A stretch of 64,000 nucleotides of DNA. Source: Alphaproteobacteria bacterium (lineage in GTDB: Bacteria; Pseudomonadota; Alphaproteobacteria; JACZXZ01). Below are positions 4,509 to 22,831 of the stretch, piece after piece. Each line of letters starts with the position of its first letter. The first letter of the stretch is position 1. The position numbers and the translations under genes were made by a program. The notes under the pieces were generated by a model. That model was not told where the DNA came from and searched no databases. It saw nothing but the letters and a program-made list of their open reading frames with translations. The DNA lies in NCBI GenBank assembly GCA_035294245.1, contig DATGLG010000012.1:123270-187269 (forward strand), in the 5' to 3' direction.

Positions 4509-5885
4509 ATGCGGCTTCTGATCATCGGCTCTCTCGACGGCTATATCGGCGCCGCCGGCAAGATCGCGCTCGCGCGGGGCGCGAAGGTCGCGCATGCGAA
4601 CGACGTCGAGATGGGGCTCGCCGCCATCCGCGCGGGGCAAGGCGCCGAGCTGGTGATGGTCGACGTGAAGCAGGACCTTCGCCGCTTCATCGACAATCTG
4701 CGGATGGAGCGCATCAACGTCCCGGTGGTGGCCTGCGGCATCGGCACCGACGCTGGCGCCGCCGTCGCGGCGATCAAGGCCGGCGCCAAGGAATACATCC
4801 CGCTGCCGCCGGACGAGGAGCTCATCGCCGCGGTGCTCGAAGCGGTCACCGAGGAGAGCCATGCCATCATCCATCGCGACCCCGCCACCGCCGCCGTCCT
4901 CGAGCTCGCCGACCGCATCGCCGATTCGGATGCGACCGTGCTGATTACCGGCGAGTCCGGCACGGGCAAGGAGCTGATGGCGCGCTACCTGCACCGCCGC
5001 AGCCGGCGTGCCAATCAGCGCTTCGTATCGGTGAATTGCGCGGCGATCCCCGAGAATCTCCTTGAATCCGAGCTGTTCGGCCACGAGAAGGGCGCCTTCA
5101 CCGGGGCCGTGGCGCGGCGCGTCGGCAAGTTCGAGGAAGCCAATGGCGGCACGCTCCTCCTCGACGAGATCAGCGAGATGGATCCGCGCCTCCAGGCCAA
5201 GCTGCTGCGCGCCATACAGGAGCGCGAGATCGATCGCGTCGGCGGCACGCAGCCGGTCAAGGTCGACATCCGGCTGATCGCGACGACGAACCGCGACCTG
5301 CTCCAGGAGGTGCGCAAGGGCGCCTTCCGCGAGGACCTCTATTACCGGCTGAACGTCGTCACCCTCAAGCTCCCGGCCCTGCGCGACCGGCCCCTCGACA
5401 TCGAGCCGATCGCCGAGCATTTCGTCCGCAAATACGCGGAAGCGAACGGCCTGCCCGTCCACCCCCTCTCTCGCGAGGCGCGCGAGCTTCTCTTCCGGCA
5501 CCGCTGGCCCGGCAACGTGCGCGAGCTCGAGAACACCATGCACCGTGCCGTGCTCTTCGCGAGAGGCGGGACGATCGGCGCCGAAGCCATCACGATCCTC
5601 GCCGAGCTTTCCACCGCCAAGGGCGCGCCGGGCGACTCTCCCCCTGCGAGCTCCTCGACGGCGAGCGCCACCGGGCCGGGCGTCTCGACCCTGGTGGGGC
5701 GCACCGTCGCGGATGTCGAGCGCGACCTCATCATCGAGACGCTCAGCCACTGCCTTGGCAATCGCACCCATGCCGCGAACATCCTCGGCATCTCGATCCG
5801 CACGCTGCGCAACAAGCTGAAGCAATATAGCGAGGAAGGTGTCGCCGTGCCGATGCCCGGCGAAGCCGATCGGGCGATCGCCTGA
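4509..5885 (+). CDS. flbD: Sigma-54-dependent flagellar response regulator FlbD
   Basis: 458 aa. The receiver-like N-domain closely resembles Caulobacter FlbD as I recall it (MRLL..G.L.G...VPVVACG...[22 protein letters not shown]). It has an AAA+ sigma-54 interaction domain ([23 protein letters not shown]) and a C-terminal Fis-type HTH ([17 protein letters not shown]). Confidence 0.9.
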
Positions 5886-5914
5886 GTCCCGGCGGCTCGC
5901 GAACCCAGCGCGTC

Positions 5915-8071: not shown

Positions 8072-8087
8072 GAGGCGAAGGTCAGCC

Positions 8088-9110
8088 ATGCGCCTGCGCT
8101 CCTTCACCGCCCCGACCGTCGCCCAGGCGATGCGGCTGGTCCGCGCGGAGCTGGGTCCGGACGCCATCATCGTCTCGACCCAGGCGGAGGGCGGGGGTCC
8201 CGCCCGCGTCACCGCCGCCATCGAGCCCGCCGCACCTGCGGGCGACCCCGCCCCGGCGGGCATCGCCGCCGGCAAGGCGGCGACCGAGGGCTCCGCGGAG
8301 CAGGCCCTGCGCGCGATCCGCAACGGCTTCGAGTTCCATGGCGTCCCCGCCGTGCTGTCCCAGCGGCTCTGTGGGCTCGCCGGCGATGCCCTCGACGAGG
8401 GAAGCGCCAAGGGCGAGCCGCTCTGGGCCCTCGCCGCCTCGCTCGACCGGCGCTTCCGCTTCGCGCCGCTCGCCAATCCCGGGGACCGCGCCCGCGCCAT
8501 CGCGCTCATCGGCCCGCCGGGTGCGGGCAAGACGACGAGCGTCGCCAAGCTCGCCGCGCGCGCCGTGCTGGCGGGTCGGCGCCTCACGGTGATCAGCACC
8601 GACACGGTTCGCGCCGGCGGCGTCGAGCAGCTCGCGAGCGTAACCCGCATCCTCAAGCTCGAGGTTCAGGTGGCCGAGGACCCCGGCGCCCTCGCCGACG
8701 CCGTGCGCGCCGCCGCCGAGACGGGCGGCGTGCTGATCGATACGGCCGGCGCCAATCCTTATGACGAGGGCGAGATGCAGCGGCTCAAGACGCTCGTCAC
8801 CGCCGCCAAGATCGAGGGCGTTCTGGTGCTCCCCGCCGGGGGCGATCCCCTCGAGGCGGCCGAAGCCGCCGCCGCCTTCGCCGACGCCGGCGCCAGCCGC
8901 CTGCTCGTCGCCCGGCTCGATGCGGCGCGCCGCCTCGGAAGCGTGCTCACCGCCGTCGAAGCCGGCAAGCTCGCCTTCTCCGAGGTGGGCACGACCCCGC
9001 ATATCGCCGACGGCCTCAAGCCTCTCAACCCGATCTCCCTCGCCCGCCTTCTCCTCGGCGAGCTCATCAGCGACTCCCAGTCCCAGGAACCCCTCAAGGC
9101 CGTGTCATGA
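8088..9110 (+). CDS. flhF: Flagellar biosynthesis GTPase FlhF
   Basis: 340 aa with an SRP-type G domain (LIGPPGAGKTTSVAKLAA, LIDTAGANP). It has the usual position after flhA, and its stop overlaps the next start (ATGA at 9107-9110). Confidence 0.85.
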   Translation: MRLRSFTAPTVAQAMRLVRAELGPDAIIVSTQAEGGGPARVTAAIEPAAPAGDPAPAGIAAGKAATEGSAEQALRAIRNGFEFHGVPAVLSQRLCGLAGDALDEGSAKGEPLWALAASLDRRFRFAPLANPGDRARAIALIGPPGAGKTTSVAKLAARAVLAGRRLTVISTDTVRAGGVEQLASVTRILKLEVQVAEDPGALADAVRAAAETGGVLIDTAGANPYDEGEMQRLKTLVTAAKIEGVLVLPAGGDPLEAAEAAAAFADAGASRLLVARLDAARRLGSVLTAVEAGKLAFSEVGTTPHIADGLKPLNPISLARLLLGELISDSQSQEPLKAVS

Positions 9111-9901
9111 CCGCCGCAGCATCCCTCACGCGCCCCGCTATCCGGCCCCTCGCGGGCGGCCGCAACCTGGTCGCCATCGCCTCGGGCAAGGGCGGCGTGG
9201 GCAAGACCTGGTTCGCCATCACCCTCGCCCACGCCTTGGCGCGCGCTGGCGATCGCGTGCTCCTCTTCGACGGCGATCTCGGCCTCGCCAATGTCGACAT
9301 CCAGCTCGGCCTTACCCCGGAGCGCGACCTGGGCAGCGTGATCGCCGGTCGCGCGAGCCTCGCCGCCGCCGCCATTCCCGTCCCGGATGTCGGCTTTGAC
9401 GTCATCGCCGGCCAATCAGGCTCCACCTCCCTCGCCGCTTTGCCGCGGGAGCAGCTCCGCGCCCTCAGCGAAGACCTGGCGGCCCTCGGCGAGCGCTATG
9501 ACCGCGTCATTCTCGACCTCGGAGCCGGCATCGAGGAAACGGTCCGCACCCTCGCGACCCGGGCGCGGCTCTGCCTCGTCGTGACCACCGACGAGCCGAC
9601 GGCGCTCACCGACGCCTATGCCTTCATCAAGCTCATGACGCGGGACCACACCGCCGCCGACCTGCGCATCGTCGTCAACCAAGTGGCCTCGCCCGCCGCC
9701 GGCGAGCGGACCTATGCGACCTTGCGCAAGGCCTGCGAGGGCTTCCTCAAGCTTTCGCCGCCGCTCGCCGGCGTGGTGCGGCACGACCGCCGCGTCGGCG
9801 ACAGCATCCGCTTGCAGACCTCGCTGCTGACGCGTTTCCCGGGGAGCGAGGCCGCCGCGGATGTGGAGGCCGTGGCCCGCCGCCTGTTTTCCCCCGGCTA
9901 A
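9107..9901 (+). CDS. flhG: MinD/ParA-type flagellar number regulator FlhG (MotR/FleN-like)
   Basis: 264 aa with a deviant Walker A (IASGKGGVGKTWF) and a Walker B region (VILDLGAG). It is translationally coupled to flhF. Confidence 0.85.
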   Translation: MTAAASLTRPAIRPLAGGRNLVAIASGKGGVGKTWFAITLAHALARAGDRVLLFDGDLGLANVDIQLGLTPERDLGSVIAGRASLAAAAIPVPDVGFDVIAGQSGSTSLAALPREQLRALSEDLAALGERYDRVILDLGAGIEETVRTLATRARLCLVVTTDEPTALTDAYAFIKLMTRDHTAADLRIVVNQVASPAAGERTYATLRKACEGFLKLSPPLAGVVRHDRRVGDSIRLQTSLLTRFPGSEAAADVEAVARRLFSPG

Positions 9902-9921
9902 GTCCATAGAGGAGGCTGGCC

Positions 9922-11667
9922 GTGACCAATGTTGCCGCCGCGCCCCCGCCCACCACCCTGCTTGGAACGACGACCGGAACCCAGATCGTCGCCGTGCTCG
10001 ATGCCAATCCGGCCCTCGCCCATCTCGACCCGGGCGGCATCGTCGAGGGCGTGGTCGTCGGGCGCGATGCGCGCGGCCAGACCGTCATCGAGACCGCCTT
10101 CGGCCAGATCTCGTTCAGCTCGCGCCTCAATCTCGCGATCGGCAGCAAGGTGGTGCTGGAGATCCAGAGCACCGGCGCACGCCTCGCCGCCATCGTGCTC
10201 TCGGTCGACGGTCAACCCGTGGCGCTGCTCGCGCGCGCTTCGGCAGCACCTCTGCCTCCTTTGCCCGACTTGGCGAGTCCGCCGGGACGCGCCGCGGCAT
10301 CCCTATCGCCCTCGACGCCGTTAGAATCGGCGCCGGTCACCGAGGTCACGCTGTCCACGGGCGTCGTGGCGACGGCGACCCTGCTGCAGCCCGCCTCGCC
10401 TGCACGGGTGCCTTCTGTCAAAGCCGAGAGCGCCCCCGCCGCCGTCGCGAATTCGACCTCGCGGCCGCCATCCTCTGCGCCCGCCTCATCACCGTCCCGC
10501 CCGGCCGCGGCAATCTTCGCCGGTGGCGGGGCGCACCCGGCACTGCCGCCCGCCTTCACCGCAGCACCGCTTCCCGCCGGAAGCCGGTTCTCGGTGCGGA
10601 TCGCGGCCATCGAGCCGCCCGCCTCGCAGCCCGGCGATACGGCCGCGCCGCCGCCGCCCATGGCTGCGGGCCCGATCGCATTCCCCGCGATCGGGGAACG
10701 CGCAGACCCTCCGGGCGATCACCCGCCCGAGCCACAGCCTCCGGGCGCGTCTTTGCCCGCGGTCACCGGCGCTCGGACACCGCCTGCGTTACGCGGCAAC
10801 GCTGCCGCGCTGGAGGGCGTTGTGATCGGCCGCGACGGCAATGGCCAGACGGCGATTCAGACGCCACTCGGCATCGTCGAGCTGCCCCTTCCATCGGAGC
10901 CGCTGGCGGGCTCCCGGATCGTCCTCGAGCTGCTCGGCCCACCCCAGCTTCCGCAGCCCGCCCCCGAAAGCCGGGATGGGGGTGAGGTGATCGGCCTCAG
11001 TCGGGCCTGGCCGGCGCTCCGCGAAGCCGTAGCGGCGCTGGCGGATGGCGCCGCCGATCCGGCGCACCCGCCCTTCTCCGGCCTGCCTCGGCCCGGTGAC
11101 GGGCTTGCGCTCGGCATTCTGCGCTTCGCCGCCGCACTCGAAAACGGGGAGAGCGCGATCTGGCTCGACGATGCGACCGCGCGCCAGCTTGCCGCGCGCG
11201 ACAGCGGCGCCTTGGCGAGCCGTATCGCGGACGACTTTGCGCATCTCGCGGCACTCGCCTCGGAGGGCGGCAGCGGCGAGTGGCGCGCCTTCTTCATCCC
11301 CGTCTGGAGCGAAAGCCAGCTGTTCCAGCTCCGGCTCTTCCTGCGCCGCGAGCAGGCGCGGCCGGATGCCGGCGCGGCGAAGGCGGCCTCGACGGGTCGG
11401 CGCTTCATCATCGAGCTCGACCTCGACAGGCTCGGCGCCATGCAGCTCGACGCCTTCGTCAAGGGGCGGCGGCTGAGTCTTATTCTGCGCAGTCATCGAC
11501 CGCTCCCGCGCGCGCTGCGGGAGGAGCTTGCGGATATTTTCGCTAGCGCCAATGCGGCGGCCGGGCTCGACGGCACCCTCGGCTTCGAGGAAGGGCTGGC
11601 CCGCTTCCCGCTGGCGCCGATCGATTCGCTGCGCAGGCTCGGGGCGAGCGAGAGCGTCGTCGTCTAG
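9922..11667 (+). CDS. Pro/Ala-rich flagellar-cluster protein, possible hook-length-control (FliK-like) protein
   Basis: 581 aa with a GTG start preceded by GAGGAGG. The centre is long and Pro/Ala/Ser-rich. The C-terminal block (RRFIIELDLDRLGAMQLDAFVKGRRLSLILRSHRPLPRALREELADIF) resembles the Flg_hook/FliK C-terminal pattern. It is the last gene of the flhA-flhF-flhG string. The family call is tentative. Confidence 0.5.
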   Translation: MTNVAAAPPPTTLLGTTTGTQIVAVLDANPALAHLDPGGIVEGVVVGRDARGQTVIETAFGQISFSSRLNLAIGSKVVLEIQSTGARLAAIVLSVDGQPVALLARASAAPLPPLPDLASPPGRAAASLSPSTPLESAPVTEVTLSTGVVATATLLQPASPARVPSVKAESAPAAVANSTSRPPSSAPASSPSRPAAAIFAGGGAHPALPPAFTAAPLPAGSRFSVRIAAIEPPASQPGDTAAPPPPMAAGPIAFPAIGERADPPGDHPPEPQPPGASLPAVTGARTPPALRGNAAALEGVVIGRDGNGQTAIQTPLGIVELPLPSEPLAGSRIVLELLGPPQLPQPAPESRDGGEVIGLSRAWPALREAVAALADGAADPAHPPFSGLPRPGDGLALGILRFAAALENGESAIWLDDATARQLAARDSGALASRIADDFAHLAALASEGGSGEWRAFFIPVWSESQLFQLRLFLRREQARPDAGAAKAASTGRRFIIELDLDRLGAMQLDAFVKGRRLSLILRSHRPLPRALREELADIFASANAAAGLDGTLGFEEGLARFPLAPIDSLRRLGASESVVV

Positions 11668-12089
11668 GTCCCCTCGGCCTCCCGACGTCGATACATCGTC
11701 AATGCGATCTCGTCCTGGATCGCCTGATGGCGCCGCTCCGCCTCGCCGCGCAGCCGCTTGCGGTGGTTGTCGAGGGCGACGTCATAGCGCTTGAGCTCCT
11801 GATAGGCGGCCGCGACGGCTGCCGTGGCCTGGGCGATCAGCTCGTCCAGCTCGGCGAGCCGGGCGGCGAAGCCGGCGCGGCGCTCGAGAACGCGGCGTGC
11901 GTAGCGGGCATAGGCCCAGCCGCCCTCCAGGGAGCCGCGGGCGGCGCGCTGCTCCTCCAGGAGCTCGCGCTCCATGCGCTCTCGCTCCGCCTCGACGACG
12001 GCGCGCTGCGATTCCAGGGCCACGAGCTCCCGCCGCCGCTCGTCGAGCCGGGCGCGATGCAGCCGGATCAGGCTCCGAAGGGCTTTCAT
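11664..12089 (-). CDS. fliJ: Flagellar export chaperone FliJ
   Basis: 141 aa, almost entirely Arg/Glu/Ala/Leu coiled coil (MKALRSLIRLHRARLDERRRELVALE...). It lies directly downstream of fliI, as fliJ normally does. Confidence 0.7.
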   Translation of the reverse strand: MKALRSLIRLHRARLDERRRELVALESQRAVVEAERERMERELLEEQRAARGSLEGGWAYARYARRVLERRAGFAARLAELDELIAQATAAVAAAYQELKRYDVALDNHRKRLRGEAERRHQAIQDEIALTMYRRREAEGT

Positions 12090-12114
12090 CGCCGGCTAGC
12101 TATCGGGTCCCGCC

Positions 12115-13443
12115 TCACGGCGCTTCCATCCCCAGGATCTCGGCGAGCCGGCGATAGCCGCCAGCGAGATCGGCGCGCTCCTCCTTTTTCTGGGCGAGGA
12201 ACTGCTCGAGCGCCGGATAATACTGAATCGCCTCGTCGACCTTGGCGTCGCTCCCCTTGCGATAGGCCCCGAGGCGGATCATCTCGGCCATGTCCTCGTA
12301 GACGGCGATGAGCTGGCGCGCCCGATCGACGAGGGCGTTCTCTACGGCGCTGTTGCAGCCGGGCATGGTGCGCGAGATGCTGCGCAGGAGATTGACGGAG
12401 GGATAGCGGCCGCGCTCCGCGATCGCGCGCTCGAGCACGATATGGCCGTCGAGGATCGAGCGCACCGCGTCCGCCACGGGCTCGTTGTGATCGTCGCCCT
12501 CGACGAGCACGGTGAAGAGGCCGGTGATGCTGCCCTGTCCCGCCAGCCCCGGACCCGCCCGCTCCAGGAGGCGCGGCAGCTCGGTGAAGACCGTCGGGGT
12601 GAAGCCCTTGCTGGTGGGCGGTTCGCCGGCCGCAAGCCCCAGCTCGCGCTGGGCGGTGGCGAAGCGCGTCAGGCTGTCCATCAGGCACAGGACTTCGAGC
12701 CCGCTGTCGCGGAAATACTCGGCGACGGTCATGGTGAGATAGGCGGCCTGGCGCCGCATCAGCGCGGACTCATCCGAGGTCGCAACCACCACCACGCTGC
12801 GCTTGAGCCCTTCGGGGCCGAGATCGTCCTCGAGGAATTCCTGCACCTCGCGCCCGCGCTCGCCGATCAGGCCGATCACGGCGATGTCCGAGGCGGTGTA
12901 GCGCGCCAGCATCGAGAGCAGCACGGACTTGCCCACGCCCGAGCCGGCGAAGATGCCCATGCGCTGGCCCTTGCAGCAGGAGAGGAAGGTATTCAGGGCC
13001 CGCACGCCGAGGTCGAGCTTGCCGCCGACCCTCTGGCGCTGATGCGCCGGCGGCGGCGGATTGCGCAGGGCGTAGGCCGCGGTCCCGGATGGCAGCGGTC
13101 CCTTGCCGTCGATCGGCTCGCCGAGCGCATTGACCACGCGGCCGAGCCAGTGCCGCGACGGCCGCATCACCGGATCGGCGCTGACGATCTCCGCCTTGCA
13201 GCCGAGCCCGATCCCCTCGAGGGGGCCGAAGGGCATGAGCAGGGCCTGGCCCTGGCGAAAGCCAATCACCTCGCAAAGGACGCGGCGGCCGCCGCGACCC
13301 TCGATCTCGCAGCGGCTTCCGATCGAGAGGCGGCGCTCGACGCCGCCCAGCTCGACGAGCATGCCGAGGACCGCCGTGACGCGGCCGTAAAAGCGCTGCT
13401 CGGGCACTTGGCCGAGCTCGGCGAGAACCCTGTCCTTCAGCAA
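12115..13443 (-). CDS. fliI: Flagellum-specific ATPase FliI
   Basis: 442 aa of the FliI/YscN family. It has Walker A ([17 protein letters not shown]), Walker B ([12 protein letters not shown]) and the motif [14 protein letters not shown]. Confidence 0.95.
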
Positions 13444-13544
13444 GAGCGAGGCCTTGCGGGAAGCGGCGGCGGCCCGCTTCGGCCGCCCTTCCGCGACGGG
13501 GCGCGGTGACCTAAAATCATGCCGCGGATCATGCTCCGGGCCCG

Positions 13545-13619
13545 CTTAAGGCTTGGTAAATTGGTGCCAAGCGTTAAAGAGTTTGTTAACCTTTCTGAAG
13601 GATCATGCTTAAGGTTAAC
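13545..13619. promoter_or_regulatory. TTAA-dense divergent fliI/ctrA promoter region (candidate imperfect CtrA boxes)
   Basis: There are five TTAA tetramers in 75 bp. They are CTTAAG at 13545-13550 and 13608-13613, GTTAAC at 13585-13590 and 13614-13619, and TTAA at 13574-13577. Spacings are TTAA-N7-TAAA (13546-13560) and TTAA-N8-TTAA (13574-13589). There is no perfect TTAA-N7-TTAA. Confidence 0.4.
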
Positions 13620-13644
13620 ATCGCGGCGCGCGTGGGGGATAGCA

Positions 13645-14361
13645 ATGCGTGTTCTGCTCATCGAAGACGATTCATCGACCGCTCGCAGCATCGAATTGAT
13701 GCTCAAGTCGGAAGGCTATATTTGCGACACCACCGATCTCGGCGAGGACGGGCTCGAGATCGGCAAGCTCTATGATTACGACATCATCATTCTCGATCTG
13801 ATGCTCCCGGACATCGACGGCTATGAGGTGCTGCGCCGGCTGCGCGCCGCGCGGGTCGGCACGCCGATCCTCATCCTTTCCGGCCTGGCCGAGCTCGACA
13901 ACAAGCTCAAGGGACTCGGCTTCGGGGCCGACGACTATTTGACGAAGCCCTTCGACAAGCGCGAGCTGATCGCCCGTATCCAGGCGATCGTGCGCCGCTC
14001 CAAGGGCCATTCCGACTCGGTGATCAAGACCGGCCGCCTCGTCGTCAACTTGGACACCCGCACGGTCGAGGTGGACAACCAGCCGCTCCATCTCACCGGC
14101 AAGGAATACGGCATCCTCGAGCTGCTTTCGCTGCGGAAGGGAACGACGCTGACCAAGGAGATGTTCCTCAACCATCTCTATGGCGGCATGGACGAGCCGG
14201 AGCTCAAGATCATCGACGTCTTCGTCTGCAAGCTACGCAAGAAGCTTGCCGCCGCCACGGGCGGGGAGAACTACATCGAGACCGTGTGGGGGCGCGGCTA
14301 CGTGTTGCGCGATCCTCAGGCCGCGGAGCTCGAGAGCGAGCAGCGCGTCGCCGCACATTGA
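13645..14361 (+). CDS. ctrA: Cell-cycle/motility response regulator CtrA (OmpR family)
   Basis: Track ORF 13519..14361 trimmed to the ATG at 13645. [25 protein letters not shown]...[22 protein letters not shown]...[10 protein letters not shown]...[13 protein letters not shown]...[13 protein letters not shown] matches the highly conserved CtrA sequence. Confidence 0.95.
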
Positions 14362-14446: not shown

Positions 14447-15286
14447 TCAGACGGCGGCGCGCGCCTGCGCCGCCGCGGCGCTGACCGCATAGATCCCCCG
14501 CTCGGCGGGAAAAGGCTGGAAGCGGTCGGTGATGCCGAGCACCGTCTCGGCGCCGCCGAGATAGAGGAAGCCGTCATCGGGCATGACCTGACGGATGCGC
14601 TCGAGCACCCGGGCCTTGGTCTGCTGGTCGAAGTAAATAAGGACGTTGCGGCAGAAGACGACGTCGAAGCTGCCGAGGATGCGCGGGTCGTCGAGCAGGT
14701 TGAATTCCCGGAACTGCACCATCGCCCGGATCGCCGGGTCGATCTGCCAGCGCTCGCCGTCCTGCTTGAAGTACTTCACGAGGAGGCTGATCGGGAGACC
14801 GCGCTGCACCTCGAACTGCGAATAGATTCCGGCTTTCGCCTTGGCCAGGATGTCCCGCGAGATGTCCGTGGCGACGATCTCGTAGCGCCAGCCGCTCAGC
14901 TTGGCCGCGTGCTCGCGCAGCAGCATGGCGACGGAATAGGGCTCCTGCCCGCTCGAGGCGGCCGCGCTCCAGATGCGGAAGCTGCGGCTCGCCGCGCGCG
15001 TCTTGATCAGGTGCGGCAAGACCAGCGAGACGAATTGGTCGAAGGGCTTCTTGTCGCGAAAGAAGAACGACTCGTTCGTCGTCATCGCATCGACGACATC
15101 GCCGACGAGAGCCTCGCGCCCGCCCGCGCGCAAGGCGCCAACGAGCTCGTCGAGATCCTTGAGGCCGTGATTGCGCGCCACCGGGACCAGCCGGTTCTCG
15201 AGCAGGTAGCCCTTGTCCTCGCCGATGACGAGGCCCGAGCGCTCGCGCAGGAGGCGGCTGAGATATTGGAAATCGTCCGGCTTCAT
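14447..15286 (-). CDS. cheR: Chemotaxis methyltransferase CheR
   Basis: Track ORF 14447..15694 trimmed to the ATG at 15286. MKPDDFQYLSRLLRERSGL...TTNESFFFRD...FRIWSAAASSGQEPYS...VFCRNVLIYFD. The start overlaps the cheB stop (ATGA at 15283-15286). Confidence 0.95.
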   Translation of the reverse strand: MKPDDFQYLSRLLRERSGLVIGEDKGYLLENRLVPVARNHGLKDLDELVGALRAGGREALVGDVVDAMTTNESFFFRDKKPFDQFVSLVLPHLIKTRAASRSFRIWSAAASSGQEPYSVAMLLREHAAKLSGWRYEIVATDISRDILAKAKAGIYSQFEVQRGLPISLLVKYFKQDGERWQIDPAIRAMVQFREFNLLDDPRILGSFDVVFCRNVLIYFDQQTKARVLERIRQVMPDDGFLYLGGAETVLGITDRFQPFPAERGIYAVSAAAAQARAAV

Positions 15287-16437
15287 ATCCGCCCCTCGAG
15301 CACGAATTTCTGCACGAAGGCGGGAATCTCGCCGACCGGCAGAATGGCCGCGCAAATGCCGGCCTGGGCCGCCGCACCCGGCATGCCCCAGACCACGCTC
15401 GTCGCCTCGTCCTGGGCCACCACGGTCCCGCCGGAATCGGCAAGGGTGCGCGCGCCGCTCAGGCCGTCCTGCCCCATCCCCGTCAGGACGAGGACGAGGA
15501 CCTTGCCGCCGCAGGCTTCCGCCAGGCTGCGCAGCATCGGATCGGCGGCCGGCCGGCAGAAATTCTCGGGCGGCCCCTTGTCGAGCTTGGCGATGAGGCG
15601 TCCGCCCTTGTTCTCGCCGAGCAAATGGAAGTCGCCCGGCGCGATATAGATATGGCCGGGCAGGATTGGCTCGCCATCCGCCGCCTCGCGGCAAGGGCGC
15701 TTGCTCTGGCGGGCAAGATGCTCGGCGAGGATGGTGGTGAAGGTGGGCGGCATATGCTGGGTCACGACGATGGGGAGCGTCATGCGCGGATCGAGCCCGC
15801 CCAGCACGGTCATGAGCGCCTGGGGGCCGCCCGTCGAGCTGGCGATGGCCAGAAGCTCGGGACGCGCCGCACCCGGGCGCCTTAGCGGCATCGGACGGCG
15901 TGTCGGCGCCTGCGCCGGCCCCGGTGCCGTGGCCTCGCCGGGGCGCAGCGCGCGCGCCGAGACGCGGCCGGCGCCGCCGCGCCGGACGGCGCCGAGCCCC
16001 TTGACCTTGCCGAGCAGCTCGCGCTGGAAATCGGCGGCGCCGACCAGCTCGCGGGTGGCGGTCGGCTTGGCGAGATAGTCGGCAGCACCGGCGGCCAGCG
16101 CCTTGATGCTGATCTCCGCGTTCCGCTTGGTAAGCGTGGAGGCCATGATCACCTTGATCGTGGGATCCAGCTCGAGCAGCTTGCCGAGCGCGGTCATGCC
16201 GTCCATGACCGGCATCTCGATATCGAGGACCACGACCTCGATCTTGTTCCGCTGGGCGGCGTTCAGCGCCTGAAGGCCGTTTCCAACCGACGCCACCACC
16301 TCGATCTCGGGATCGGCCTCGAGAGCGCGCGTGATGAGCCCGCGGACCACGACGGAGTCGTCGACGATCATGACCCGGTAAGGCCCCGGCCGCTCCTCGG
16401 GCGCGGCGGCGCTCGCCTCGACGATCGCGGGGGCCAT
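15283..16437 (-). CDS. cheB: Chemotaxis methylesterase/response regulator CheB
   Basis: Track ORF 15283..16647 trimmed to the ATG at 16437. It has a REC domain (RVMIVDDSVVVR...VVVLDIEMPVMDG) and an esterase domain (AIASSTGGPQAL, VTQHMP, LTGMGQDG). The start shares 1 nt with the cheY stop. Confidence 0.95.
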   Translation of the reverse strand: MAPAIVEASAAAPEERPGPYRVMIVDDSVVVRGLITRALEADPEIEVVASVGNGLQALNAAQRNKIEVVVLDIEMPVMDGMTALGKLLELDPTIKVIMASTLTKRNAEISIKALAAGAADYLAKPTATRELVGAADFQRELLGKVKGLGAVRRGGAGRVSARALRPGEATAPGPAQAPTRRPMPLRRPGAARPELLAIASSTGGPQALMTVLGGLDPRMTLPIVVTQHMPPTFTTILAEHLARQSKRPCREAADGEPILPGHIYIAPGDFHLLGENKGGRLIAKLDKGPPENFCRPAADPMLRSLAEACGGKVLVLVLTGMGQDGLSGARTLADSGGTVVAQDEATSVVWGMPGAAAQAGICAAILPVGEIPAFVQKFVLEGRI

Positions 16438-16802
16438 CAGATCAATCCCACCTGCTCGAATTTCGCTTGAATGATCTCGCTGTCGAACGGCTTCATGATG
16501 TATTCGTCGGCGCCCGCCGCGAGCGCTTCCTGGATGTGGGTGAGATCGTTCTCGGTCGTGCAGAACACCACCACCGGCTGATCGCCGCCGCTCGTCCCCC
16601 GCAGCGTCTTGAGAAACTCGAGGCCGTTCATCACGGGCATGTTCCAATCGAGGAGGATGGCATCCGGCATGCGTTCGCGGCAGGCGTCCATCGCCATCTT
16701 GCCGTCGGCCGCTTCCGTGATCTCGAAATTCAGCCCTTCGAGAATGCGACGCGCGACCAGTCGGACGACCTTGGAATCATCGACGACAAGGCAGGTCTTC
16801 AT
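16437..16802 (-). CDS. cheY: Single-domain chemotaxis response regulator CheY
   Basis: 121 aa: MKTCLVVDDSKVVR...ILLDWNMPVMNGLEFL...GADEYIMKPF. Confidence 0.9.
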   Translation of the reverse strand: MKTCLVVDDSKVVRLVARRILEGLNFEITEAADGKMAMDACRERMPDAILLDWNMPVMNGLEFLKTLRGTSGGDQPVVVFCTTENDLTHIQEALAAGADEYIMKPFDSEIIQAKFEQVGLI

Positions 16803-16856
16803 GAACTCGCTCCGCAGCTTGCGGCCGTCATCAGAGACGCATGCTCATGCTCCGGG

Positions 16857-17366
16857 TCACGCCGCCTCGGCGCGCCGGAACTGGAGAAGGCGCTCGACAT
16901 CGAGCACGATCATGAGCTGGTCCTTGAGGCGGTAGATGCCGGCCGAAACCTCGCGCCAACGCACGCTCAAGGTCGCTGGATTGCGCTCGAAATCCTCGGG
17001 CGGCAGGCTCAAGACCTCGCCCACCTGGTCGATCACCAGGCTATAGAGCTCGCCGCCATACTCCACCACGACATTCATGCTCCCTGCCTCGGCCTCGCGC
17101 GGCGGGAGCCCCAGCCTGCGGCGGACATCGATGACGGTGACGATGCGGCCGCGCAGGTTGAGGGCGCCGGCGACCTCGGGCGGGGCCAGCGGAATGCGGG
17201 TGATGCGCTGGGGGCCCAGCACGTCCTGGACGGTAAGCACGGGAATCCCGAACAGCTGATCCGCGATGACGATTGTCACGAACTCGCTCTGGCCGCCCGC
17301 GGATGCGGCGCGCCCGGCTCCCGCCTCGCGCTTCTTTCTCGCCTGCTTCTTCGTCGTCTTGGTCAT
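16857..17366 (-). CDS. cheW: Chemotaxis coupling protein CheW
   Basis: Track ORF 16857..17750 trimmed to the ATG at 17366. It has a Lys-rich N-tail and then the CheW fold (FVTIVIADQLFGIPVLTVQDVL...ALNLRGRIVTVIDVRRRLG). The start overlaps the cheA stop (ATGA at 17363-17366). Confidence 0.9.
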   Translation of the reverse strand: MTKTTKKQARKKREAGAGRAASAGGQSEFVTIVIADQLFGIPVLTVQDVLGPQRITRIPLAPPEVAGALNLRGRIVTVIDVRRRLGLPPREAEAGSMNVVVEYGGELYSLVIDQVGEVLSLPPEDFERNPATLSVRWREVSAGIYRLKDQLMIVLDVERLLQFRRAEAA

Positions 17367-20356
17367 GCGGCCCTCGCATTTTGAGCGAGCGTTTCGGAAA
17401 TGGTGTGGAGCAGCGCGTCGCGATCGAACTTGGCGACATAATCGGTGAAGCCGACCTCGCGACCGCGGTCGAGGTCGCTCGGCGAGGTATGGGACGAGAG
17501 GGCCACGAGCGGCACGTCCTGCCACCGCGCCGAGCTCTTCACGGCCTCGGCAAACTCGAACCCGTCCATGCCGGGCATCTCGATGTCGCTGATGATGATG
17601 TCGAAGTTCTCGCCGGCCTCGTAGAGGTTCAAGGCGCGATCGGCGCTCTCCACCGAGGTGACGTCGTAGCCGGCGACCGAGAGCAGCGGGGTCAGAAGAT
17701 TGCGGAAGAAGGGGCTGTCGTCGACGAGCAGGATACGGCGGGATGGGCACTCGCCGTCGGTTTGCTCGATATTCTTGAACCAGTCGGCATAGGCTCTCGT
17801 CAGGTAATGGCCGGTGTCGATGATCTCGGTGGCCTGGCCACCCACGACGGCGCTGCCGAGGAGCCCCGGCCGGCTGCCGGTGAGCTCGACGTTGAGGCGG
17901 TCCTCGACGATGTCGACGATCTCATCGACGATCAAGCCCATGGAGCGGTGACGATCGGAGAAGACGATCACGGGCTGGCGGCCCTTCTCCCTGAGCGATT
18001 GCGATTCGCCGACGGCGATGAGCGGCATGAGCTGGCCGCGATACTGGACCACGGGCTGCCCGTCGGAGATCTCGACGGTGGTGACGTCGATCTCCTCGAG
18101 CCGTGCCACGAGCGAGAGGGGTACCGCCTTCGGCGTCTTGTCCCCGGCACGGAAGACGAGGAGCGCGATGCGATCGTTACGAACGCCCTCGCGCCGCTCG
18201 GCCTCGAGCATGTCCTCCTCCGTCGCGATGAGGTCGCTCGCGGCGCTGGCGATCCCGTTGGGGTCGAGGATCATGACGACGCTGCCGTCGCCGAGGATCG
18301 TGTTCCCGGAATAGATCTGGATGTCGCGCAAAATCGGGGCCACCGGCTTGACCACGATTTCCTCGGTATCGAACACCTTGTCGACGATGATGCCGAGGCT
18401 CGCGGCGCCGAGCTGCGCCACCACGATGAAGGCCTCCTGGTGGCTCTTGGCTGCCACCTCCTCCGGCGTCTCGAGCTGGAGCAGGCCGCCCAGCGAGACG
18501 AGCGGAAGCAGCCGGTTGCGCAGCCGCAGGACCGGCGCGCCGTTGATGAACTCGATCTTGTACTCGGATTTGGCCGAGGCGCGGACCAGTTCGCTCACGC
18601 TGATCTGCGGGATGGCGAAGCGCTCGCCGGCCGCTTCGACGATGAGCGCCGAGACGATCGCGAGCGTGAGCGGGATCTTGACCGTGAAGGTGGACCCCTT
18701 GCCCAAGGTCGACTTGATGTCGATGACGCCGCCGATCTTCTCGATGTTGGTCTTGACGACATCCATGCCGACGCCGCGGCCGGACACGCTCGTCACCTTG
18801 TCGGCGGTCGAGAAGCCGGGCCGGAAGATGAGCTGCATCACCTGCTGGTCCGACATGCCTTCGAGTTCGGCCTCGGTGTGCAGGCCGTTGGCGACGGCCT
18901 TGGCCTTGATCTTGTCGATGGCGAGCCCGCGACCGTCGTCCCCGATCGCGATGACGATGTGCCCGCCCTCGTGATAGGCCTCGAGGCGGATCGTGCCGGT
19001 CTCCGGCTTGCCCGATTTCTCGCGCTCCTTCGGCGTCTCCAGGCCGTGATCGGCCGAGTTGCGCACCATGTGGGTCAGCGGATCCTTGATGATCTCGAGG
19101 ACCTGGCGGTCGAGCTCGGTCTCGGCGCCGACCATGGTGAGGTCGATCTTCTTGCCGAGCTCCCGGCTGAGATCGCGCACGAGGCGCGGCAGCTTGGCCC
19201 AGGCGTTGCCGATGGGCTGCATGCGAGTGCGCATCACGCCCTCTTGGAGCTCGGAGGTGACGTGATTGAGGCGTTGCAGCGGCGCCGCGAAATCCGATTC
19301 CTTCTGCACCCGGAGGATCTGCAAGAGCTGATTGCGGGTGAGAACCAGTTCGCTGACCATCGTCATCAGGTTCTCGAGGAGGTCCACATTCACCCGGATG
19401 CTGTTGGCCGCGACGTTGGATTCGCCGCGGGCCTTCTCCGCGGGGCCGCCGGCGACCTCGGCCGCGGCAGCGCTCTTCTCCGCGGCGGGCGCCAGCGCGG
19501 CGGCGGTGTCCTCGCCCTCCGCATCCGAGCCGCCCGATTGCACGTCGGCGGCAACCAGCGTGAGAATGCGGCTCGCGACGCGCTGATGAACATCAAGCGT
19601 CTCGAGCGCCTCGCGGAGATGCTCGGCAACAACGTCGTGATTGCTCTCGCCAAGCCCGCGCGAGGCAAGGTGATGAAAGATGTTGCGGGGCTCATCGCCA
19701 CCTGTGGGGCCGCCGAGGAGGCGCGCCAGGTGGGCGCGCTCGCCGCCGCGCAGGCGATCGAGATCGGTATTCTTGAAGAAGTTCTTCAGGAACTCGTCCT
19801 TGGACATATGGTCGAAGAAGACCTCGACGACGGCGTCGAGCACGCCGAGGCCGCCCATCTGCTCGTAGAGCGTGCCGCCGGCCGGCATCGGCGCCTCCGC
19901 CGCAGGCGCCTCGACCGCCGGCGCAGGCTCGGACGCCGATGCCTCCTCGCCAGCCGGCGCGACGGCCGCCGCCACCGGCTTGCCCGAGGCAAACGCATTG
20001 AGGCGGCCGATCAGCGCCGAGTCATCGCCCTCGGGCTCCGCCTCGGTCGCCTCGAGAGCGCCGAGAAGGCCCTTGATGCAGTCGAGCGCCTCGAGAATGA
20101 GGCTGACCGCATCGGGCGTCACCAGGAGCTCGCCATCACGAAACTTGCCGAGGATGTTCTCGCCGGCATGCGCGACCGCCTCGAGCCGGGGCAGCCCGAG
20201 GAATCCGCAGGTGCCCTTGATCGTGTGCACGAGGCGAAAGATGTTGCCGAGGAGCTCGGGATCGTTCGGGTCCTGCTCGAGCTTCACCAGCTCACCGTCC
20301 AGGACTTCGAGGCTTTCCGCGGTTTCGGTGAGAAATTCCTTGAGGAGGTCGTCCAT
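17363..20356 (-). CDS. cheA: Hybrid chemotaxis histidine kinase CheA-REC with an inserted truncated-haemoglobin-like domain
   Basis: Track ORF 17363..20437 trimmed to the ATG at 20356 (MDDLLKEFLTE). Domain order is Hpt/P1 (HTIKGTCGFLG), Ala/Pro linker, globin-like segment (aa ~161-272), linker, P3 (SIRVNVDLLENLMTMVSEL), HATPase (DDGRGL, GRGVGMDVV, GKGSTF), CheW-like P5, then a C-terminal REC (RILLVDDSPFFR...IISDIEMPGMDG). Confidence 0.95.
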   Translation of the reverse strand: MDDLLKEFLTETAESLEVLDGELVKLEQDPNDPELLGNIFRLVHTIKGTCGFLGLPRLEAVAHAGENILGKFRDGELLVTPDAVSLILEALDCIKGLLGALEATEAEPEGDDSALIGRLNAFASGKPVAAAVAPAGEEASASEPAPAVEAPAAEAPMPAGGTLYEQMGGLGVLDAVVEVFFDHMSKDEFLKNFFKNTDLDRLRGGERAHLARLLGGPTGGDEPRNIFHHLASRGLGESNHDVVAEHLREALETLDVHQRVASRILTLVAADVQSGGSDAEGEDTAAALAPAAEKSAAAAEVAGGPAEKARGESNVAANSIRVNVDLLENLMTMVSELVLTRNQLLQILRVQKESDFAAPLQRLNHVTSELQEGVMRTRMQPIGNAWAKLPRLVRDLSRELGKKIDLTMVGAETELDRQVLEIIKDPLTHMVRNSADHGLETPKEREKSGKPETGTIRLEAYHEGGHIVIAIGDDGRGLAIDKIKAKAVANGLHTEAELEGMSDQQVMQLIFRPGFSTADKVTSVSGRGVGMDVVKTNIEKIGGVIDIKSTLGKGSTFTVKIPLTLAIVSALIVEAAGERFAIPQISVSELVRASAKSEYKIEFINGAPVLRLRNRLLPLVSLGGLLQLETPEEVAAKSHQEAFIVVAQLGAASLGIIVDKVFDTEEIVVKPVAPILRDIQIYSGNTILGDGSVVMILDPNGIASAASDLIATEEDMLEAERREGVRNDRIALLVFRAGDKTPKAVPLSLVARLEEIDVTTVEISDGQPVVQYRGQLMPLIAVGESQSLREKGRQPVIVFSDRHRSMGLIVDEIVDIVEDRLNVELTGSRPGLLGSAVVGGQATEIIDTGHYLTRAYADWFKNIEQTDGECPSRRILLVDDSPFFRNLLTPLLSVAGYDVTSVESADRALNLYEAGENFDIIISDIEMPGMDGFEFAEAVKSSARWQDVPLVALSSHTSPSDLDRGREVGFTDYVAKFDRDALLHTISETLAQNARAA

Positions 20357-20481: not shown

Positions 20482-21135
20482 TCAGGAGCGGGCGGGAAGA
20501 GCGAGACGGAAGGCAATGGACTCAGCGGATTCCGCGATCGCGACGGACAGCTCGCCGCGCGCCGACAAGCGCCCCGTGAAATAGGCGTGGGCCGTGCGCG
20601 CCGTCAGCTCCTCGATGCGCGCCTCGCCGCGAAAGGCGCGCGACGCTTCATCGCCGAGACCCGCCTGTTCGCCGGCGGCTTTCACGATGATTTCCATCTG
20701 CTCCGCCCGCTGGACCGCCATCACCTCGACGCGTCCGCCGCGCGGCAACGCCTCGCTCGCCAGCACGATGAGATTGAGGAGCAGCTTCAGCCCATCGCGG
20801 CTGGGCCGCCATTCCGCCTCGCGCCCCTCGCGCGGCCATTCGAGCCGAAGGCGCGCGCCTTCGAGGACACCTTCGGCAAGGCCGCCGATCTCGGCAAGAG
20901 TCAGATTGGTATTCACGCCGGCGGCGAGGCCATAGGCGACCCGGTAGAATTGAAGCCGCCGCGCCGCGCTTCGCGCGCTCTGCGCGATCAGCGCCAGCGC
21001 CTCGCGATCGGGCTCGTCCTCGAACTCGGCGATCAGCTCGACGCCGTTGCTGACAGCACCCACCGGGTTGATCAGCTCGTGGCAGAGCCGCGAGCAGAGC
21101 AGCTCGGCGACCTTGAGATCGATCAAGACATCCAT
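20482..21135 (-). CDS. chpT: Histidine phosphotransferase ChpT (CckA-to-CtrA/CpdR relay)
   Basis: 217 aa. The N-terminal DHp-like helix carries the phospho-His motif LCSRLCHELINPVGAVSNGVELI. The C-terminal half is a degenerate HATPase-like domain. Length and motif match the ChpT family as I recall it. Confidence 0.8.
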   Translation of the reverse strand: MDVLIDLKVAELLCSRLCHELINPVGAVSNGVELIAEFEDEPDREALALIAQSARSAARRLQFYRVAYGLAAGVNTNLTLAEIGGLAEGVLEGARLRLEWPREGREAEWRPSRDGLKLLLNLIVLASEALPRGGRVEVMAVQRAEQMEIIVKAAGEQAGLGDEASRAFRGEARIEELTARTAHAYFTGRLSARGELSVAIAESAESIAFRLALPARS

Positions 21136-21290
21136 CGGCTCTCCCCTCGAGGCATCCCGGTCCCTGGCCGAAGGTCGACCGCTCAGGCCGCACCAACTCC
21201 GCGTCGTGACAGCCCTTTATAGGGCTATCGCCGATCTTGTAAACTGGGCGCGTCAATTCGCGGCGCACGACAATCGAGAGGAATCCGCGC

Positions 21291-21476
21291 CTGAGCCAGC
21301 GTCTTGCTCCCGGGACCTTCGTCCGCCATCCGCTCGAGCCCGAATGGGGCTTGGGACAGGTCCAGTCATCGATCGGCAACCGCATCACCGTGAATTTCGA
21401 GCATGCCGGCAAGCGCCTCATCAATGGCGACATCGTTGCGCTGGAGATCGTCGACGAACCTCGGCCTTCGCCCTGA
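21291..21476 (+). CDS. DUF3553-like small protein (about 61 aa) with putative CTG start
   Basis: It is not in the ORF track because the frame has no ATG, GTG or TTG. The frame open from 21243 to the TGA at 21474-21476 reads ...LSQRLAPGTFVRHPLEPEWGLGQVQSSIGNRITVNFEHAGKRLINGDIVALEIVDEPRPSP. This matches my recollection of the ~60-aa DUF3553 family (VRHP..P.WGLGQVQS...VTVNFE..GK). GAGAGGAA lies 8 nt upstream of the CTG at 21291. Confidence 0.5.
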   Translation: MSQRLAPGTFVRHPLEPEWGLGQVQSSIGNRITVNFEHAGKRLINGDIVALEIVDEPRPSP

Positions 21477-21508
21477 GGCGCAACCCCCTCGGCCACGGTA
21501 GCGGCGCC

Positions 21509-22831
21509 ATGCCCGAATCCCCCGCCCCACTCGATCACCGCGCCAGCGCGCCGCCGCCCCTCCCGGGTGTGGTGCTCTATGCGCCCGGAAGCTCGAAGAG
21601 CCAGGTCCTGCGCGCCTTTGCCGACGAGCTCAAGGCGCGGCGCTGGCGCGTCGGCGGCGTCATTCTGGACACTCTCTATGACGCGCAAGGCCAGAAGGTC
21701 GGCCTCGATCTCGTAAGCCTCGCCGATGAGCGGCGGATCCCCCTGGCGCGGCCCGAGACGGTGGGCATCGCCATGGGGCGCTGGATGCTCGATCCCACCG
21801 CCCTCGCCGCCGGCAAGCAGGCGATCCGCGCGGCGGTCGGAGCAGCCGAGCTCATCATCGTGGACAAGTTCGGCGCCCTCGAAGGACGCGGCGACGGCTT
21901 CAACGCCGCCCTCCGCCAGGCCCTCGCCGCCGCACCGGCGCTGCTGGTGGCCCTGCGGAGCGAGTTCCTCGATGCCTGGGACGCCGTAGCCGGCCGCCCG
22001 ACTGTGGCCCTGCGCCCGGATATCGGCGCCCTGTGGCGGTGGTGGGGTCCCTATCGCCTCTACGAGGAGCTGGCGCGAGGCGTCGACGACCTCCCCGTGC
22101 GCCGCGTCGTCATCGGCATGAACTGGACGCTGGTGGAGTCGCCGCATGGCTGCGGCCTTGCCCATACGCCGGCGCGGGACGCGCCGGGATGTCGGCCGCT
22201 TGGGGAGGCCGGCGGCCTCGCCGCGCGCAGCCTCAAATCCCTGGCCGCCCTCGCGACGGCGTGGAACCCCTTCGAGGCCGCGATCGGGCTGGCCGCGATC
22301 AACGCCCATTACAACCGGCCCGAGCTTGCCGGCGCGGGCGCGAACGGGCTCGATCTCTTTGCCGCCCTGCCGGGGCGCAAGCTCGTCATCGGCCGGTTTC
22401 CCGAGCTGAGCCGCCGCGTGCCCGATGCCTGGGTCATCGAGCGCGCGCCGGCTCAAGGCGAGCTGCCCGCCCACGCTGCCGATTGGGTCCTGCCATCGGC
22501 CGATGCCGTCGCCGTGACAGCCTCATCCCTCGGCAATCTCACCTTGCCCCGCCTGCTGGAGCTCGCGCGGGGCGCGAGGGTGGCTCTTATCGGCCCGGGC
22601 ACGCCGCTGACCCCCGCCCTTCATGCCTATGGCATCGACGTGCTGTCCGGCTTCGTCGTGACCGATCCCGAGCGCGCCGCCCGGGCGGTCGCCGAAGGCG
22701 GCGCCGTCAAGGCGCTGAAGACCTGCGGGCGGCTCGTGACCCTGGTGCGACACGAGGGCGCCGCGACGCCAGGGATGGTCGCCGGGCGTCCCGCCGGGAT
22801 CGCGCAAAGAGCGGCTAAGGAGTTCCAGTAG
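21509..22831 (+). CDS. Fusion protein: DUF2478 (THEP1-like NTPase-like) N-domain plus DUF4213/DUF364 (putative metal-chelating Rossmann-like) C-domain
   Basis: Track ORF 21047..22831 trimmed to the ATG at 21509, because the upstream part is not protein-like. The N-half has VVLYAPGSSKSQVL...VGGVI...LIIVDKFGALEGRGDGF...ALLVALR. The C-half has VVIGMNWTLVES..GCGLAHT, IGLAAINAHYN, KLVIGRFP and VALIGPGTPLTPALHAYGIDVLSGFVV. Confidence 0.75.
   Translation: MPESPAPLDHRASAPPPLPGVVLYAPGSSKSQVLRAFADELKARRWRVGGVILDTLYDAQGQKVGLDLVSLADERRIPLARPETVGIAMGRWMLDPTALAAGKQAIRAAVGAAELIIVDKFGALEGRGDGFNAALRQALAAAPALLVALRSEFLDAWDAVAGRPTVALRPDIGALWRWWGPYRLYEELARGVDDLPVRRVVIGMNWTLVESPHGCGLAHTPARDAPGCRPLGEAGGLAARSLKSLAALATAWNPFEAAIGLAAINAHYNRPELAGAGANGLDLFAALPGRKLVIGRFPELSRRVPDAWVIERAPAQGELPAHAADWVLPSADAVAVTASSLGNLTLPRLLELARGARVALIGPGTPLTPALHAYGIDVLSGFVVTDPERAARAVAEGGAVKALKTCGRLVTLVRHEGAATPGMVAGRPAGIAQRAAKEFQ

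Follow-up and report, generated by a model that had tools for sequence, protein, structure and literature searches.

A truncated-haemoglobin-fold domain in the P1–P3 tether of an alphaproteobacterial chemotaxis kinase CheA and of its Dongiaceae-type relatives

The cheA locus and the fold of the tether domain

The stretch of DNA analysed here, 64 kb of contig DATGLG010000012.1 from an alphaproteobacterial assembly and referred to as the window, carries a chemotaxis operon in the order chpT-like, cheA, cheW, cheY, cheB and cheR. The cheA product is a hybrid kinase of 997 residues, and residues 161–272 of this protein (GTLYEQMGG...AADV, from bases 19541–19876 of the reverse strand) constitute a genuine, independently folding domain with the fold of the group-I truncated haemoglobins (trHbs), located within the disordered tether that connects the P1 (Hpt) domain with the P3 dimerisation domain. 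In E. coli CheA, the same site is occupied by P2. No Pfam match to a P2/CheY-binding family was obtained in the window CheA at E ≤ 0.01, and P2 is an auxiliary domain without which more than 50% of CheAs are functional all the same (PMC10782961). The Hpt, dimerisation, HATPase_c and CheW-like domains are the core set that defines CheA (PMC10782961), and the corresponding P1, P3, P4 and P5 of the window protein all score above the Pfam cut-offs.

Pfam family PF01152 (Bac_globin) matches residues 162–268 over profile positions 1–112 of 121 with an E value of 7.5e-11 and a score of 42.7 bits (gathering cut-off 21), and this match sits between Hpt (residues 3–92) and H-kinase_dim (residues 318–376). 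The top sequence matches in the PDB (phmmer) are all group-I trHbs, among them the Tetrahymena protein 3aq7 (1.6e-11) and Mycobacterium tuberculosis HbN (MtHbN; 4e-11); sequence identity to the solved trHbs is low, at about 30%. An AlphaFold2 (AF2) model of residues 143–289, with a predicted local distance difference test score (pLDDT) of 81 and a predicted template modelling score (pTM) of 0.70, has the 2-on-2 pattern of helices A, B, C, E, a one-turn F, G and H. Foldseek comparison with the PDB returned group-I trHbs (MtHbN, Tetrahymena and Paramecium) with a probability of 1.0, target-normalised template modelling (TM) scores of 0.77–0.85 and root mean square deviations of 2.1–2.4 Å. The Gly-Gly hinges of the AB and EF corners are kept as G168-G169 and G215-G216, and CD1 is Phe (F194).

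In a model of the full-length protein, nothing else in the N-terminal half is predicted as well as the globin domain (pLDDT 84–94), and residues 135–159 and 277–327 on either side have pLDDT values below 50. The region around the first linker (residues 118–160) consists to 79% of Ala, Pro, Glu, Gly and Ser, and the second linker is of similar composition. Because a confidently predicted domain lies between disordered Ala/Pro-rich linkers, it is an autonomous folded module on flexible tethers. These results bear out most of what a first-pass annotation, made from the sequence alone, had claimed or expected for this gene: a trHb-like domain of group-I character at residues 161–272 in the place of P2, a PF01152 match between Hpt and H-kinase_dim, a predicted 2-on-2 helical fold, retained Gly-Gly motifs, Ala/Pro/Glu linkers that bracket the segment like an inserted module, a kinase ending in a receiver (REC) domain, and an operon that has no gene for a methyl-accepting chemotaxis protein (MCP).

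The coordinates of the domains and of the neighbouring genes are collected in Table 1. An MCP signalling-hairpin motif was found in none of the six reading frames of the 64-kb window. The operon adjoins flagellar genes (flbD-like, flhA, flhF, a gene for a MinD/FleN-like ATPase, and fliI) together with a ctrA-like regulator gene; with a chpT-like gene upstream and the ctrA-like gene beyond cheR, the che operon is thus flanked by genes of a cell-cycle/motility phosphorelay. All related loci examined (L001–L037 and L050–L053), like the window, have the chpT-like gene, and the ctrA-like gene lies downstream in all those whose contig reaches far enough, with an identity of 77–95% across loci (mostly 83–90%). 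In its REC fusion and gene order the chemotaxis system of the window matches the F5 class (Azospirillum Che1-like), to which it may belong.

Upstream of the chpT-like gene and divergent from it, there is a gene for a fusion of NTPase_1, DUF2478, DUF4213 and DUF364 (the last described as "putative heavy-metal chelation"), which keeps its place beside chpT in the window as well as in each of the five loci of the clade that were examined (L045, L050–L053 and the contig of P0005). A small DUF3553 gene is called beside this fusion in the five clade contigs, and a short open reading frame (ORF) adjoins it in the window.

Table 1. Positions in the window of the cheA gene, the parts of its product and the genes around it
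Feature	Position	Strand	Evidence
cheA, hybrid CheA-REC kinase, 997 aa, start ATG (MDDLLKEF)	17363..20356	-	ORF and Pfam domains
P1/Hpt, aa 3-92, phospho-accepting His in HTIKGTCGFLG	20081..20350	-	Pfam PF01627, E 9.3e-16
Linker 1, aa 135-159, disordered, Ala/Pro/Glu-rich	19880..19954	-	pLDDT <50 (full-length model)
trHb (group I, 2-on-2) fold domain, aa 161-272	19541..19876	-	Pfam, phmmer, AF2, Foldseek
Codons Phe227-His228-His229; Phe227 in the F8 (proximal-ligand) column	19670..19678	-	Translation; alignment columns
Linker 2, aa 277-317, disordered, Ala-rich	19406..19528	-	pLDDT 27-46; 76% A/P/E/G/S
P3 dimerisation domain (H-kinase_dim), aa 318-376	19229..19405	-	Pfam PF02895, E 1.6e-13
P4 ATP-binding kinase domain (HATPase_c), aa 425-564	18665..19084	-	Pfam PF02518
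P5/CheW-like receptor-coupling domain, aa 570-705	18242..18649	-	Pfam PF01584, E 2.8e-32
Second beta-rich CheW-like domain, between P5 and REC, aa 730-846	17819..18169	-	Second Pfam CheW stretch; beta strands, pLDDT about 80-88
C-terminal REC, aa 875-986	17399..17734	-	Pfam PF00072, E 1.7e-20
chpT-like histidine phosphotransferase gene, directly upstream of cheA	20482..21135	-	Pfam PF10090, E 2.8e-22
Downstream operon block, cheW to cheR	14447..17366	-	Pfam and called genes in identical contig L045
cheW	16857-17366	-	Pfam; called genes, identical contig L045
cheY	16437-16802	-	Pfam; called genes, identical contig L045
cheB	15283-16437	-	Pfam; called genes, identical contig L045
cheR	about 14447-15286	-	Pfam; called genes, identical contig L045
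ctrA-like OmpR-family regulator, just past cheR on the opposite strand	13519-14361	+	
FlbD-like sigma-54 activator, flagellar cluster (4509-13443)	4509-5882		
FlhA, flagellar cluster	5915-8068		
FlhF-like signal recognition particle GTPase, flagellar cluster	8088-9107		
MinD/FleN-like ATPase, flagellar cluster	9107-9898		
FliI, flagellar cluster	12118-13443	-	
NTPase_1 + DUF2478 + DUF4213 + DUF364 fusion	21047-22828	+	Upstream of chpT, divergent

The haem site of the window domain

The group-I trHbs carry a proximal His at F8, and the first-pass annotation had assigned this position to a His of the FHHL sequence (residues 227–230). That assignment was not supported by alignment with the relatives. 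The F8 column is occupied by Phe227 in (i) a MAFFT alignment of 102 CheA-embedded domains with three reference trHbs, (ii) an hhalign comparison of the profile of the window clade with two His-bearing subfamilies, the canonical and the Dongia-type, and (iii) an hmmalign alignment to a His-bearing profile, for which MtHbN, Synechocystis GlbN and Paramecium Hb served as controls, the known F8 His of each falling where it should. From F to FG the window domain reads F-x-x-L-x-x-R-G-L, with exactly the spacing of the canonical H-x-x-L-x-x-R-G-L. Phe227 is invariant in the window clade (6 of 6 members, the window CheA included), in which the two following positions, 228 and 229 (F9 and F10), are HH, RY, SF, RY, GF and RH. 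No alignment register yields a His that is conserved among the closest relatives.

The distal side differs as well from the arrangement of Tyr at B10 with Gln at E7 or E11. By hmmalign, B10 is Phe181, E7 is Leu202 and E11 is Glu206, so that the earlier description of B10 as Phe and of E11 as a residue other than Gln is correct. Further residues of the pocket are Gly at E10 and, both in place of Phe, His at E14 (His209) and His at G5, and CD1 is either Phe or Leu within the window clade. Three His residues, His209 (E14), His246 (G11) and His257 of the GH turn, are found in every member of the clade; His246 is conserved throughout the family, haem-type members included, and is therefore probably structural. 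Because it has no His in the F8 column and no Tyr at B10, the window domain is filed here as a trHb-derived fold and not as a haemoglobin. The position of the haem-binding His is not conserved in this lineage, and the window copy may therefore no longer sense through haem.

The spacing rule of canonical trHbN, by which F8 lies 12 residues after the GGP sequence, lands on His229. This rule was rejected as proof that His229 is F8 because both hhalign and hmmalign locate a two-residue deletion in the loop that precedes helix F.

Distribution and evolution of the CheA-embedded globins

Relatives were taken, as sequence clusters, from the 120 best CheA homologues in a collection of 5.8 billion proteins. 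The globin domain is carried by 102 of the 120, including those of Dongia deserti, D. rigui, Hypericibacter and many metagenome-assembled genomes (MAGs) of Dongiaceae or Rhodospirillaceae. A survey of species, with one genome for each and a 12-sequence alignment for the scan, located a CheA-embedded copy in 38 representative genomes, mostly of Dongiaceae and including Dongia mobilis and D. soli; the window's organism, an uncultured bacterium from a soil metagenome (JGI 3300005524), is not among the representatives, and the best identity in the domain was 42%. Of these loci, 37 are complete and one is cut by a contig end, and chpT-cheA synteny is common to all 38. A metagenome scan for more members of the window clade gave four distant loci only, and the clade comprises six members and an additional protein, P0067. 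Four loci with the Dongiaceae-type chpT-cheA(globin) synteny and a kinase-core identity of approximately 75–78% come from MAGs that are labelled Binatia, Cybelea, Terriglobales and Terriglobia (L003, L009, L032 and L035); these are probably mis-binned contigs. Five matches from Chloroflexota/Limnocylindrales (L039–L043) were considered as signs of a wider spread and rejected, since they are stand-alone group-II trHbs and not CheAs. A profile search of a library of 1.84 billion representative sequences (P0121–P0160) was headed by multi-repeat trHb proteins unrelated to CheA, among them the 1882-residue P0121 with up to 14 matched stretches.

The nearest orthologues without a globin, from Azospirillum, Arenibaculum and Stellaceae, have only an Ala/Pro linker at the site and are 71–72% identical elsewhere. 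Relative to these Azospirillum-type orthologues the globin domain is an insertion, and it is the rule in the Dongiaceae-like Rhodospirillales. In a neighbour-joining tree of the kinase core, midpoint-rooted and without support values, the Azospirillum group, which has no globin, branches from within the groups that carry one.

The haem site varies widely within the family. His is present at F8 in 63 of the 102 clusters (about 62%) and in 25 of the 37 complete species loci, and the other residues found there in various lineages are Lys, Ser, Gln, Tyr, Asp and Gly, or the position is deleted. A small subfamily (for example P0020, P0021, P0029 and P0031) is fully canonical with Tyr B10, Gln E7, Gln E11 and His F8. 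A large Dongia group (for example P0047 of Dongia deserti, L012, L022 and L030) has Phe B10, Leu E7, Met E11, Tyr E14 and His F8; in this, the largest subfamily, a distal pocket that is wholly apolar or contains Met accompanies the proximal His. It is a matter of speculation that Met E11 could serve as the sixth haem ligand, which would fit the sensing of redox state better than that of a gas. Forms without the F8 His are spread over at least six separate branches of the kinase-core tree.

Some relatives have more than one trHb. In four of them the P5/CheW-like domain contains a second trHb within a surface loop (P0102, residues 640–762; P0094, 693–815; P0027, 619–744; P0035, 627–752), in addition to the copy in the tether, and these P5 insertions are fully canonical with Tyr B10, His F8 and Phe G5. 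The equivalent site in the window CheA, residues 625–645 or thereabouts (approximately 18420–18480 of the window), has no insert. In P0008 the tether contains two tandem trHbs, of which the first is His-less and the second canonical.

The domain has also been lost. P0067, an 882-residue protein encoded on a 6,097-bp contig of the Joint Genome Institute (JGI), is the sister of the clade member P0006, with a kinase-core identity of 82% as compared with 70–73% to the other members of the clade. It lacks helices B–G of the globin and keeps a 13-residue remnant of the last helix (H) at residues 140–160 or so, IVAAKIATIANAD against RVAARIAAIVSAD. Because this remnant is retained, the absence of the domain from P0067 is attributed to a secondary internal deletion.

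Pairwise ratios of non-synonymous to synonymous substitution rates (dN/dS) within the window clade are 0.11–0.45 for the globin domain, as compared with 0.3–1.4 for the linkers (0.3–1.3 for linker 1 and 0.33–1.36 for linker 2) and 0.02–0.2 for P1, P3, P4 and P5 (0.02–0.13 for P1), all of these values being approximate because dS is saturated. They indicate that the globin domain is still under purifying selection and not drifting freely. The repeated acquisition of canonical trHb modules suggests that sensing by haem is, or once was, of importance to this lineage of CheAs, and the repeated loss of the ligand with retention of the fold suggests that the fold also has a role that is independent of haem.

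Interpretation and relation to known systems

The probable state of the window copy, to which we assign somewhat better than an even chance, is that of a decayed or repurposed globin fold that has been retained in the P1 tether. The domain is most likely a haem-free, or at least a non-canonical, globin fold that forms a structured element of the tether, and would most likely be either a pseudo-sensor or a module whose ligand or partner has changed. Decay of its haem site is suggested by the invariant Phe at F8, the lack of conservation of the adjacent His residues, the replacements at B10, E11, E14 and G5, the variability of CD1 and the deletion of the domain in a sister lineage. Several observations weigh against this assignment. 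The loop before helix F is two residues shorter than in the canonical CheA-embedded relatives, so that the register could shift; a pairwise phmmer alignment with MtHbN places His228 at F8, opposite His81 of MtHbN; and the FG Arg (R233), Phe B9, Phe CD1 and Leu E7 are kept as in haem-binding trHbN. Since two His residues follow the F8 column, the preceding loop is shortened and phmmer aligns His228, a local shift of register could still provide a His ligand here and in P0006 (RH at these positions). In addition, the window clade is small, the tree from which the branches were counted has no support values, and the dN/dS values share the saturation noted above.

These same observations form the case for a working haem protein, in which His228 or His229 would be the proximal ligand below an unusual distal pocket of Phe B10, Leu E7 and Glu E11 and an O2, NO or redox signal would be passed to CheA. 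The strong homology to trHbN in sequence and fold, the phmmer pairing, the 12-residue spacing that leads to His229, the retained Phe B9, Phe CD1, Leu E7 and FG Arg, and the F8 His of most of the wider family are all consistent with such a sensor, but three profile or multiple alignments give Phe227 at F8, the five closest homologues conserve neither of the two His, residues E11, E14 and G5 are polar or charged where a pocket should be apolar, and the sister P0067 has deleted the domain; we consider a working haem protein unlikely, if the most serious of the alternatives. Considerably less probable is a repurposed sensor whose cavity binds some other ligand or a metal, perhaps through His209, His246 and His257, much as fatty acids are bound by globins of the RsbR type or of sporulation kinases. 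The invariance of these three residues in the clade would fit this proposal, as would the purifying selection despite the loss of the F8 His and the precedent of non-haem globin sensors (PMC8717448), but no tool suggests a ligand, His246 is shared with haem-type members and probably structural, and the known non-haem globins are 3-on-3 and not 2-on-2.

A slightly smaller probability still is given to a module that stands in for P2 by docking CheY, CheB or a ChpT-like protein and so raising rates of phosphotransfer, whether or not haem is bound. It would account for the location of the domain between flexible linkers at the position of P2, for the lack of a detected P2/CheY-binding family, for the persistence of the domain in lineages without the F8 His and for the chpT-like gene that is always adjacent; against it, more than half of all CheAs function without P2 (PMC10782961), and neither the Azospirillum-type orthologues nor P0067 have any domain there. 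That the window domain is no globin at all has a negligible probability, nothing being in its favour beyond the identity of about 30% to solved trHbs. Chance similarity was rejected on a Pfam score twice the threshold, PDB E values near 1e-11 and a Foldseek probability of 1.0, with TM scores up to 0.85; a divergent P2 on the all-alpha 2-on-2 prediction, as compared with the alpha/beta fold of P2; and a chimeric assembly on the recurrence of the architecture in more than 100 clusters. A protein identical to the window CheA (P0001) is recorded on at least 10 contigs, which likewise excludes an assembly artefact.

The family probably began with a haem input to CheA, and the ancestral module was most likely a haem-binding input for O2, NO or redox state because the proximal His persists in about two-thirds of the members and, in some, the entire set of Tyr B10, Gln E7, Gln E11 and His F8. 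The second canonical trHb, independently inserted in P5 of four relatives, would lend support to a sensory origin.

As to mechanism, the CheA dimer, held together by P3, would bring two globin copies close together on the P1 tethers. It may be conjectured that ligand-dependent pairing of the globins, or their docking onto P1 or P4, could alter how much P1 is effectively present at the ATP site of P4. In a different scheme, the module would act in the manner of P2 as a docking site, with CheY, CheB or the ChpT-like protein encoded next to cheA as its partner. Transmission through a rigid allosteric relay, as in HemAT, is unlikely because linkers of approximately 25 and 45 disordered residues isolate the module. 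Control by receptors through P5 and CheW would continue, and any input from the globin would be additional.

The first-pass annotation had suggested that a haem signal enters the kinase directly and not by way of a receptor. Of this proposal, the globin module within the kinase stands, but a retained proximal His is not supported and the bypass of receptors is too strong a statement. P5, the second CheW-like domain and the separate CheW, CheB and CheR are all intact, so that the kinase stays receptor-coupled, and the lack of an MCP gene in the operon or of an MCP hairpin in 64 kb does not mean that receptors are bypassed.

Comparison with group-I trHbs (MtHbN, the Tetrahymena trHb, Synechocystis GlbN and Chlamydomonas THB1) places the window domain in the same Pfam family, with the same 2-on-2 fold, Gly-Gly hinges, Phe B9, Phe CD1 and FG Arg, and with Leu E7 as in HbN. 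Those proteins, however, are free chains of ~120 residues, whereas the window domain is internal to a 997-residue kinase and differs from them in Phe at F8, Phe at B10, Glu at E11, His at E14 and His at G5. In the globin-coupled sensors, as in HemAT, a 3-on-3 globin lies N-terminal to an MCP signalling domain. The wiring of a globin fold into chemotaxis is common to both, as is, for the His-bearing relatives, a likely logic of haem-based aerotaxis; by contrast, the globin of the window CheA is of the T family and 2-on-2, it is internal, and it is placed in the tether of a kinase and not on top of a receptor. It is connected by disordered linkers only, without a coiled-coil or HAMP-like connection, and its canonical haem ligation has probably been lost. 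The S-family globin-coupled sensors are defined by an N-terminal 3-on-3 globin with a C-terminal transmitter, an arrangement that the window CheA does not have, and the resemblance is one of concept, with globin lineage, position and coupling all different. Only of the His-bearing relatives may it be supposed that they operate like a globin-coupled sensor.

A Bac_globin-PAS-MCP receptor, known by in silico prediction only (from Corallococcus coralloides and a small number of other bacteria), resembles the window protein in that a globin of the PF01152 type is fused to a chemotaxis protein but is unlike it in that the fusion is to a receptor (MCPsignal) and not to CheA (PMC6194562). The Azospirillum-type CheA-REC hybrid shares the 71–72% identity outside the insert, the gene order, the C-terminal REC, the lack of P2 and a long Ala/Pro tether but has no folded domain in that tether, where the window CheA has a globin fold of roughly 110 residues. 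REC fusions of CheA are typical of the F3, F5, ACF and Tfp classes (PMC10782961). P2 itself occupies the corresponding site between P1 and P3, likewise flanked by flexible linkers, and is unrelated to the window domain in fold. In the non-haem globin sensors (RsbR, the sensors of Bacillus sporulation kinases, photoglobin and the phycobiliproteins), another residue has taken the place of the proximal His and the globin fold has stayed on in a signalling protein (PMC8717448; PMC7475203). These are long-established 3-on-3 families, whereas the CheA-embedded family is 2-on-2, has His-bearing and His-less members within one orthologous family, and is apparently in mid-transition.

A full-text search of the literature found no description of a globin inside CheA, in keeping with the first-pass annotation, which knew of no characterised example, though trHb reviews may contain a passing listing. 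Fusions of 2/2 haemoglobin domains with protein kinases or with nitrate reductase are mentioned in reviews (PMC7082302). A genome-wide survey of CheA architectures in 2023 treats CheA as a kinase without a sensor domain and gives P2, REC and CheC/X as its auxiliary domains, and globins are unmentioned in its text and available supplementary files (PMC10782961). The CheA-embedded globin architecture is therefore apparently undescribed so far, and widespread. A bolder reading of the sequences, which we regard as possible but hold only tentatively, is that the Dongiaceae-type CheAs may be the first CheA family with a built-in sensor (the trHb of the tether, in some members with another in P5) that reads O2, NO or redox state on top of the receptors, and may also be a series in which a 2-on-2 haemoglobin is repeatedly and independently turning into a haem-free signalling module, the window protein being one converted form with a new ligand or partner.

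For the window CheA itself, the Pfam label "globin" should not be taken to mean "haem sensor". The wider family is of more interest than the window copy, and it is open to experiment in cultured Dongia species. Its His-bearing and His-less orthologues, together with one lineage that has deleted the domain, offer a rare view of the decay or repurposing of a haem sensor. CheA is the textbook example of a histidine kinase without an input domain, and a globin fold that is conserved in CheA throughout a family, and that occurs in species which are motile and in culture (Dongia mobilis, D. soli, D. deserti and D. rigui), would open a direct test of oxygen or redox sensing at the level of the kinase.

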